Shown here piece after piece: positions 44,901 through 47,900 of a DNA stretch of 64,000 nt; position 1 is the stretch's first letter; every line of letters begins with the position of its first letter. The stretch lies in assembly GCF_013315695.1 (NCBI RefSeq), contig NZ_CP054353.1; one strand, 5' to 3'. The position numbers were made by a program. Origin of the DNA: Escherichia coli (GTDB lineage Bacteria > Pseudomonadota > Gammaproteobacteria > Enterobacterales > Enterobacteriaceae).

Positions 44901-47900
44901 ATAATTCATCGCTCCCTTTTTCGTGCTTGCTGTCGTATTGACTTAACCGGGATAAGTACGAGAATGAGCGCACATCTGTTTACCGGAAACCAGCACATAT
45001 GGATATCTGCTCCCGAAACGAGAAATTAGCGATTAGAAGACCAGCGATACTGGTTGCACTGGCACTTTTACTGTGTAGTTGTAAAAGCACGCCTCCAGAG
45101 TCCATGGTGACACCACCAGCGGGTTCAAAGCCACCAGCCACGACGCAACAATCGTCACAACCGATGCGTGGCATCTGGCTGGCCACGGTGTCTCGCCTCG
45201 ACTGGCCACCGGTTTCCTCGGTTAACATTAGTAACCCCACCAGCCGGGCACGTGTACAACAACAGGCGATGATCGACAAACTGGATCATCTGCAACGTCT
45301 CGGCATAAACACGGTCTTTTTTCAGGTCAAGCCGGATGGTACCGCCCTGTGGCCATCGAAAATTTTGCCGTGGTCCGATCTTATGACCGGTAAGATTGGT
45401 GAAAATCCGGGTTACGATCCGCTGCAATTCATGCTCGACGAAGCCCACAAGCGTGGGATGAAAGTACACGCATGGTTTAACCCCTATCGCGTATCGGTTA
45501 ATACGAAGTCCGGTACTATCAGGGAACTGAATAGCACCCTGTCTCAACAACCGGCGAGCGTCTATGTGCAACACCGCGACTGGATCAGAACGTCCGGCGA
45601 TCGCTTTGTCCTCGACCCGGGCATACCTGAGGTTCAGGACTGGATCACATCAATAGTCGCAGAAGTGGTTTCCCGCTATCCGGTAGATGGCGTGCAGTTT
45701 GACGACTATTTCTATACTGAGTCACCAGCTTCACGGCTAAATGATAACGAAACGTACCGCAAATACGGCGGCGCATTTGCGTCAAAAGCAGACTGGCGGC
45801 GCAACAATACTCAGCAGTTAATTGCGAAGGTATCGCACACCATTAAAAGCATTAAGCCGGAAGTCGAATTTGGCGTTAGCCCGGCAGGCGTGTGGCGTAA
45901 CCGATCACACGATCCGCTCGGTTCCGATACCCGAGGCGCGGCAGCCTATGACGAATCCTACGCTGATACCCGTCGATGGGTGGAACAAGGGTTGCTGGAT
46001 TACATTGCTCCCCAAATATACTGGCCATTCTCACGGAGTGCCGCGCGTTATGACGTGTTGGCAAAATGGTGGGCGGATGTCGTTAAACCGACCAGGACCC
46101 GCCTGTATATCGGTATCGCCTTCTATAAAGTAGGAGAACCTTCAAAGATAGAGCCAGACTGGATGATTAACGGCGGCGTACCGGAACTGAAAAAGCAGCT
46201 CGATCTTAACGATGCCGTGCCAGAAATTAGCGGCACAATCTTGTTCCGTGAGGACTATCTGAATAAGCCACAGACTCAACAAGCGGTCAGCTATCTGCAA
46301 AGTCGTTGGGGCAGTTAAACTCCCATTCTTACTTTGTAACAAGCCGGTGCTTTCCCCCCGGCTTGTTACCCTCTTGAAATATCCCACTAGTAATCATGCT
46401 TACTTAAGTCAAATTAACTACGCAATTAACCACACTTAGGTGATGCTGCCAACTTACTGATTTAGTGTATGATGGTGTTTTTGAGGTGCTCCAGTGGCTT
46501 CTGTTTCTATCAGCTGTCCCTCCTGTTCAGCTACTGACGGGGTGGTGCGTAACGGCAAAAGCACCGCCGGACATCAGCGCTATCTCTGCTCTCACTGCCG
46601 TAAAACATGGCAACTGCAGTTCACTTACACCGCTTCTCAACCCGGTACGCACCAGAAAATCATTGATATGGCCATGAATGGCGTTGGATGCCGGGCAACA
46701 GCCCGCATTATGGGCGTTGGCCTCAACACGATTTTACGTCACTTAAAAAACTCAGGCCGCAGTCGGTAACCTCGCGCATACAGCCGGGCAGTGACGTCAT
46801 CGTCTGCGCGGAAATGGACGAACAGTGGGGCTATGTCGGGGCTAAATCGCGCCAGCGCTGGCTGTTTTACGCGTATGACAGGCTCCGGAAGACGGTTGTT
46901 GCGCACGTATTCGGTGAACGCACTATGGCGACGCTGGGGCGTCTTATGAGCCTGCTGTCACCCTTTGACGTGGTGATATGGATGACGGATGGCTGGCCGC
47001 TGTATGAATCCCGCCTGAAGGGAAAGCTGCACGTAATCAGCAAGCGATATACGCAGCGAATTGAGCGGCATAACCTGAATCTGAGGCAGCACCTGGCACG
47101 GCTGGGACGGAAGTCGCTGTCGTTCTCAAAATCGGTGGAGCTGCATGACAAAGTCATCGGGCATTATCTGAACATAAAACACTATCAATAAGTTGGAGTC
47201 ATTACCGAAGAAGTCATTGGCAATAACATTGATATGCTGATTCCGCGGGATTTGCGTCCTGCGCATCCTGAATACATTCGTCATAACCGTGAAGGCGGTA
47301 AAGCGCGCGTCGAGGGGATGAGTCGGGAGCTGCAGCTGGAGAAAAAAGACGGCAGTAAAATCTGGACCCGTTTTGCGCTATCGAAAGTGAGCGCCGAGGG
47401 GAAAGTTTATTACCTGGCGCTGGTACGGGATGCCAGCGTAGAAATGGCGCAAAAAGAACAGACCCGACAATTGATTATTGCCGTTGACCATCTCGACCGA
47501 CCGGTGATTGTCCTCGATCCGGAACGCCATATTGTGCAGTGCAATCGCGCATTTACCGAAATGTTTGGTTACTGCATTAGCGAAGCCAGCGGTATGCAGC
47601 CCGATTCACTCCTTAACATTCCTGAATTCCCTGCCGATAACCGCATTCGTTTACAACAGTTGCTTTGGAAAACCGCCCGCGATCAGGACGAATTTCTGCT
47701 ATTGACGCGCACCGGTGAAAAAATCTGGATTAAAGCCTCTATCAGCCCGGTTTATGACGTGCTCGCGCATCTGCAGAACCTGGTAATGACCTTCTCGGAT
47801 ATCACCGAAGAACGGCAAATCCGCCAGCTTGAAGGCAATATTCTCGCCGCCATGTGCAGCAGCCCGCCATTTCATGAAATGGGGGAAATCATTTGTCGTA

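Follow-up and report, generated by a model that had tools for sequence, protein, structure and literature searches.

IS1-mediated adjacent deletions were reportedly described in the gal region by Reif and Saedler in 1975, and Turlan and Chandler are said to have treated them in 1995 in terms of intramolecular replicative transposition. In these classical cases the IS is kept, the deletion begins exactly at an IS end, no target-site duplication is present and the far end-point varies, all of which is also the case at the Escherichia coli dosCP locus described here. Unlike the classical examples, this locus is seen as an end product in a natural lineage, from which the donor site, and a mechanism involving a single element, have to be reconstructed. 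The general concept of IS-mediated adjacent deletion has been reviewed, and published experience is that IS-linked deletions come without duplications and simple insertions with them (PMC11708052). The adjacent deletions made by IS150 in the Lenski long-term lines resemble the present allele in being IS-linked and duplication-free, in contrast to duplicated simple insertions; they differ from it in that they involve another IS family and that the prior simple insertion was seen in a time series, whereas here there is an end product only (PMC11708052). At the dosCP locus, IS1 very probably caused a loss of 1,809 bp, from the digH-dosC intergenic region to dosP codon 49/50, in the ancestor of one clone, and left the DosC/DosP module null.

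The locus lies in a 64-kb stretch of DNA, here called the window, whose gene order is gadB, gadC, digH (yddW), IS1, a 5'-truncated dosP and ddpX; the genes and sites located below are on its plus strand. The upstream neighbour of the lesion, the glycosyl hydrolase gene digH (44999-46318), is an intact ORF that bears this name in matching RefSeq records. It is followed by a hairpin with a 12-bp stem (46336-46369; -19.6 kcal/mol, z = -6.8, with 0 of 200 shuffles equally stable in RNA folding), probably the digH terminator, which lies upstream of IS1 and is undisturbed. The element itself, placed by direct reading, BLAST and PGAP, is 768 bp long (46439-47206), is co-directional with dosP and starts 120 bp past the digH stop (46318), its length and this distance being those given in the earlier note on this DNA. 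By BLAST it is the only IS1 copy in the window.

A repeat search places imperfect 23-bp inverted repeats at its ends (46439-46461 and 47184-47206; GGTGATGCTGCCAACTTACTGAT / GGTAATGACTCCAACTTATTGAT), with 18 of 23 positions complementary. A -1 frameshift at an A6C site (46745-46751) links two ORFs, insA (46494-46769) and insB' (46688-47191), and the insAB' frame closes with a TAA at 47189-47191. The called IS1 genes carry the Pfam families InsA, HTH_Tnp_IS1 and DDE_Tnp_IS1, and in matching RefSeq records PGAP labels them 'IS1-like element IS1A family transposase, programmed frameshift'. By its length, inverted repeats, insA/insB' frameshift and domains, the element is IS1, of the IS1A type. The 9 bp to its left are ccacactta (46430-46438), which in intact relatives are continued by gttaaacag, and the 9 bp to its right are gaagaagtc (47207-47215), which sequence and alignment identify as dosP codons 50-52. 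The two flanks are unlike each other, and a direct-repeat search at the flanks of the element found no target-site duplication around it, so that the difference reported in the earlier note survives re-inspection. The lack of an 8-9 bp duplication is expected of a deletion derivative and leaves the identity of the element as IS1 unaffected. Directly from the IS1 end runs what is left of dosP, codons 50-799 and the stop (47207-49459; ORF, BLAST, Pfam and PGAP), already marked by PGAP in the matching RefSeq records as a pseudogene, 'incomplete; missing N-terminus'. Downstream, both the 257-bp dosP-ddpX spacer and ddpX (49717-50298; ORF, RefSeq records) are intact.

Alignment to the dosCP region of MG1655 defines the missing DNA: 1,808 bp are absent (1,565,587-1,567,394), the left flank stopping at 1,567,395 and the right flank restarting at 1,565,586. 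Measured against the closer strains AF10, AF14 and XH992 the loss is 1,809 bp and likewise stops after dosP codon 49, with flanks that are collinear to both IS1 ends. The window from 47207 aligns by BLAST with MG1655 dosP from nucleotide 148, that is, from codon 50, which bears out the claim that IS1 directly abuts internal dosP sequence and turns an estimate of about 50 missing codons into exactly 49 (57 residues in the older 807-residue numbering of structural papers). Lost along with these 49 codons are the DNA upstream of dosC, the small gene yddY (13 codons), dosC in full and the 24-bp spacer. Judged by position, the dosCP promoter lies in the lost upstream region; it and yddY are additions to the losses that had been listed. 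Neither dosC (tblastn best E = 0.93; blastn no match) nor the dosP 5' end (tblastn, blastn) was found elsewhere in the 64-kb window.

The ancestral state is visible in sister strains, which were found by searching with the neighbouring ydeP-pqqL segment, a query free of IS elements, an IS1-containing query being confounded by nearby IS1 copies. The nearest relatives are AF10 and AF14, UK blood-culture isolates whose flanks are 99.9% identical to those of the window. Both have intact dosC and dosP and are without IS1 at either breakpoint, where they read ...ccacactta|gttaaacag... and ...acaaacgt|gaagaagtc...; XH992, the next-nearest relative, gives the same outcome. As the locus is undisturbed in all three, the IS1-scar allele is derived. 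The dosP remnant differs from the AF10 gene by three substitutions, two of them non-synonymous (E130A and L441F), and L441F is private to the window strain. Carriers of the allele together with AF10 and AF14 form a natural near-isogenic pair for probing the role of DosC/DosP in clinical isolates.

Is the allele a deletion, or a simple insertion? Other IS1 copies at the same locus provide the comparison. Three simple insertions lie in the digH-dosC spacer, in 65COLEC (9 bp from the left breakpoint of the window, with an 8-bp duplication) and in MLI110 and BDSF8-3 (each with a 9-bp duplication); two more, also with 9-bp duplications, are within dosC in STEC276 and, in the opposite orientation, at the dosC 3' end in HCP8S3_I1. 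Perfect 8-9 bp duplications are thus present in 5 of 5 simple insertions, all in unrelated strains, and in none of the 3 IS1 copies that adjoin missing DNA, those of the window, EC17CM6 and MS20673. The latter two, in which dosC' is joined to bdm (EC17CM6) and digH to sra (MS20673), resemble the window in that IS1 has the same orientation, has no duplication and marks a loss that extends rightwards from the digH/dosC area. They are unlike it in being independent events in unrelated strains, with IS1 variants 93-96% identical, and in being much larger, such that dosP, the ddp operon and osmC are also gone. On these sequence comparisons the window allele is supported as a deletion and not a simple insertion.

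Both junctions of the allele occur in only 2 of 5,426 complete genomes, those of MSB1_4I (rectal swab, Australia) and AF3 (blood culture, UK). No complete RefSeq genome is identical to the window, which is separated from MSB1_4I by 12 substitutions in 63 kb and by an IS1 beside asr that MSB1_4I has and the window does not; the window strain is a third genome with the allele. Both junctions are also present in one NCTC genome and in four Broad KTE-series scaffolds, and a contig from ENA and a metagenome contig from JGI show the right junction at their ends. A scan of JGI metagenome contigs for the exact 42-nt right-junction pattern gave 0 matches, a count that has no weight given that the scan missed a JGI contig carrying the junction. 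Over 5-8 kb the carriers are 1-2 substitutions from the window, and they differ by about 0.02%; they come from a rectal swab, a blood culture and gut metagenomes, among other sources. An exact-sequence look-up places the 741-aa remnant of the MSB1_4I type on 334 public contigs, and the same look-up holds no exact record of the window's own 741-aa ORF because of its private L441F substitution.

The shared junctions are explained if the deletion happened once, in the founder of a clone that is young and has spread over a wide geographic range. IS1 is highly repeated in these genomes and can mislead assemblers, so a mis-join at a repeated IS1 might mimic a deletion. However, the same left and right junctions recur both in two complete assemblies that are independent of each other and in unrelated NCBI, ENA and JGI short-read assemblies, to which the window strain adds a third genome that is distinct from MSB1_4I at 12 SNPs and one IS1. 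An assembly artefact is effectively refuted by this recurrence and retains next to no probability. Nor did an intact dosC turn up at the locus, which the earlier note had named as a finding that would count against the deletion; the same junction is present in the independent complete assemblies and in every sampled public contig. The junction of this inherited deletion can be typed by PCR and is a clean marker of one E. coli clone associated with humans.

How did the loss arise? The most likely path, held with a little more confidence than doubt, is a one-element adjacent deletion with the spacer as the first insertion site. IS1 would have inserted into the AT-rich digH-dosC spacer, its right end would then have attacked a dosP target within its own DNA molecule by intramolecular replicative transposition (the 'adjacent deletion'), and the DNA between would have been excised, leaving no target-site duplication and a single IS1 copy at the scar. 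AT content is 68% around the left breakpoint and 56% around the right, and the digH-dosC spacer has been struck by IS1 repeatedly in unrelated strains. Repeated insertion in the spacer, taken with IS1-anchored deletions whose right end-points vary, amounts to the classical adjacent-deletion pattern, although this AT-rich stretch may just as well have served as target site as donor site. A precursor would show an IS1 with its duplication precisely at the left or at the dosP breakpoint, for which the signatures are the junction CATTACC-CCACACTTAGTTAAAC (simple insertion at the left site) and the junction ACGTGAAGAAGTC-GGTGATGC (simple insertion at the dosP site). Such a precursor was found in 0 of 5,426 complete genomes, so it is from the end product that we infer both the sequence of steps and the involvement of a single element.

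Two IS1 copies could also have inserted separately, pointing the same way, into the digH-dosC spacer and at dosP codon 49/50, each making its own duplication; homologous (RecA) recombination between them, deleting one copy along with the 1.8 kb in between, would give the same end product. The two flanks would then stem from different insertions, and the product would be identical to that observed. The carrier genomes have at least 40 IS1 matches each, a sign that IS1 has been very active in the lineage, and recombination between IS copies is a recognised source of missing duplications (PMC11708052). This route, however, requires two independent insertions in the same orientation within 1.8 kb, and neither is found singly at these exact positions in the 5,426 complete genomes. 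Deletions that are anchored at IS1 and have differing right ends recur (EC17CM6, MS20673), as adjacent deletions predict, which counts against the two-copy scheme. Recombination is thus a possible but rather unlikely origin of the scar, and the adjacent deletion is modestly preferred. Where the earlier note had proposed an adjacent deletion in place of a simple insertion, the deletion itself holds, on the evidence of the intact locus in AF10 and AF14 and of the contrast in duplications; the choice of one element over two concerns routes with the same product.

In the DosC/DosP module, the gene for the globin-coupled GGDEF diguanylate cyclase, dosC, is gone. The dosP gene has lost its native promoter region together with the ribosome-binding site and start codon, and its haem-PAS domain lacks the first third. 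The first PAS_9 match in the remnant covers model positions 29-100 only, with 1-28 missing (Pfam), in agreement with the truncated haem-PAS N-terminus described before; alongside this shortened domain the remnant has a second PAS, which is intact, together with a degenerate GGDEF and an EAL (Pfam EAL 1.4e-69, GGDEF 6.9e-21, PAS_9 4.2e-11). The solved structures of the DosP haem domain cover residues 1-139 and 8-126. Among the lost residues is M30 at the dimer interface; when it is mutated, DosP no longer binds O2 and is inactive (PMC11543664). The proximal His77 and the distal Met95 are still encoded. The locus, then, has neither a dosC upstream of dosP nor a complete haem-PAS, and keeps the C-terminal PAS/GGDEF/EAL part.

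Signals for expression of that part are few. As had been noticed, insB ends at a stop codon in the dosP reading frame, so no InsB-DosP fusion is made, and the next start is ATG 47234 (Met59), which opens a 741-aa ORF. The sole sigma-70-like site between digH and dosP' is PIRL at the left end of IS1, in the position of the insA promoter (46446-46473; 9 of 12 matches in a consensus scan), a consensus match only, with 1 site found against 1.0 expected. In the consensus scan neither a hybrid nor an outward-facing promoter showed up at the right-hand end of IS1 or at the junction. The hexamer TTGGAG (47193-47198), considered by eye as a -35, has no acceptable -10 at 16-18 bp. Predicted Shine-Dalgarno pairing is -1.5 kcal/mol at ATG 47234 versus -9.0 at the native dosC start and -7.2 at that of dosP. 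Another in-frame start, ATG 47318, has the only strong SD-like pairing (-6.8 kcal/mol), but its GAGGGG abuts the ATG at an unfavourable spacing and it was set aside. The internal start at 47234 and its ORF, raised in the earlier note as a possible source of a GGDEF-like/EAL product, do exist; with PIRL as the one promoter-like site and so weak a pairing, expression from them is unlikely. The earlier view of the module as inactivated accordingly finds support in the gene content: it is most likely functionally null, and the 741-codon dosP remnant most likely a young pseudogene.

Could the remnant still be alive? IS1 is classically polar on the genes downstream of it, which counts against this idea. 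Transcription from the insA promoter of IS1, or read-through from digH, might nevertheless yield a haem-less truncated DosP, starting at Met59 or later, that would act as an O2-independent c-di-GMP phosphodiesterase in cells without its partner cyclase. IS1 and dosP' are co-oriented, the 741-codon frame is open, and the second PAS, the GGDEF-like domain and the EAL domain are intact. Furthermore, the isolated EAL domain and the H77A (no haem) and R131A (uncoupled) forms of DosP are active in vitro (PMC11543664), and IS1 fusion promoters have been documented at other genes (PMC9330008). Against a live remnant stand the lack of a promoter-like site where IS1 adjoins dosP', the poor pairing at ATG 47234 and the in-frame insB stop that prevents fusion; the half-deleted PAS, moreover, may misfold or hinder dimerisation. 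The open frame carries no weight either way, because the clone is recent and its carriers differ so little, and two of its three differences from the AF10 gene change the protein. From the sequence, a working phosphodiesterase at this locus would be improbable. Fainter still is the prospect that IS1 or digH read-through turned DosP into an oxygen-blind constitutive phosphodiesterase which, together with the loss of DosC, would lower c-di-GMP and would have been selected in a human extra-intestinal clone on several continents.

Loss or decay of dosCP is frequent. At least 80% of the deleted segment is present in 4,296 of 5,426 complete E. coli genomes, and 21% are without most of it. A literature search found no paper on this IS1 allele and only general statements that DosC is frequently absent. 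The allele is real and clonally inherited, yet ordinary, since it combines IS1-linked deletion with the lineage-specific erosion of c-di-GMP enzymes, both of which are well known. Its practical value is modest, and it leaves the current understanding of IS1 and of c-di-GMP signalling unchallenged. Among the described losses, APEC IMT5155 and about 1,100 other complete genomes have a 165-nt dosC remnant beside an intact, full-length dosP, a remnant type of dosC loss that has been reported for ST131 as well (PMC5635171; bioRxiv 2022.05.07.487787). In O157:H7 the DNA between dosC' and ddpD' is deleted, and for Shigella flexneri dgcO a 'truncating deletion, no GGDEF' is recorded (PMC11327459). Like the window allele, the lesions of IMT5155, O157:H7 and S. 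flexneri are lineage-specific losses of DosC, DosP or both; unlike it, they have no IS1 at the scar and have other end-points. The IS1 scar is a further independent way in which E. coli, as it has done recurrently, lost the oxygen-responsive DosC/DosP c-di-GMP module.

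The interval spanning digH, dosC and dosP has been struck by IS1 repeatedly, with at least eight independent events among the complete genomes listed. These include the events at L003, L005, L006, L007 and L022 as well as two larger IS1-associated deletions, one extending to bdm (EC17CM6, L008) and the other to sra (MS20673, L021). Taken together, this number of independent events, larger deletions included, makes the interval look like a local IS1 hot spot.

The spacer between digH and dosC carries a 12-bp tandem duplication (window 46412-46433; AATTAACTACGC / AATTAACCAC...) that MG1655 lacks. 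The IS1 sites in the window and in 65COLEC, an unrelated strain with a simple IS1 insertion in this spacer, fall inside the duplication or just past it. A search of complete E. coli genomes with the dosC/dosP-5' segment that is deleted in the window also returned five matches located on plasmids rather than chromosomes.

The sister strains AF10 and AF14, which keep dosCP, have a deletion of their own: about 1 kb, equivalent to window 49839-50845, is missing and ddpX is fused to ddpA. The two sub-lineages are therefore shedding neighbouring genes independently of each other.

Within the clone that shares the IS1 scar, MSB1_4I carries an extra IS1 adjoining asr (2558858-2559555 of its record) that is absent from the corresponding site in the window, at about 10147-10155. 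This difference identifies the window strain as a different member of the MSB1_4I clone, and indicates that IS1 is still mobile inside it. In AF3, the other complete genome with the same scar, the dosP-adjacent IS1 carries a single substitution and has lost 1 bp, at the equivalents of window 46700 and 46957, and for this reason its transposase is called "frameshifted" by PGAP; these changes reflect either decay of the element or an error of long-read assembly. Over 13 kb, four of the five substitutions that separate the window from MSB1_4I and AF3 are confined to 440 bp of gadB (42517-42955), a cluster that looks like a gadA/gadB gene-conversion tract and not point mutation.

Another insertion sequence marks a rearrangement elsewhere in the window. 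Between 23905 and 29615 the gene order is fumC (23905-25308), an IS4 transposase gene on the minus strand (25458-26804), the 3' remnant of a fimbrial gene taken to be ydeQ-like (26857-26997), and ydeP, with coordinates mapped from the MSB1_4I annotation. IS4 forms the junction between the fimbrial remnant and a block running from ynfF to fumC. The second end-point of the inversion of this block lies beyond the window, and within the window the block is inverted with respect to the K-12 order.
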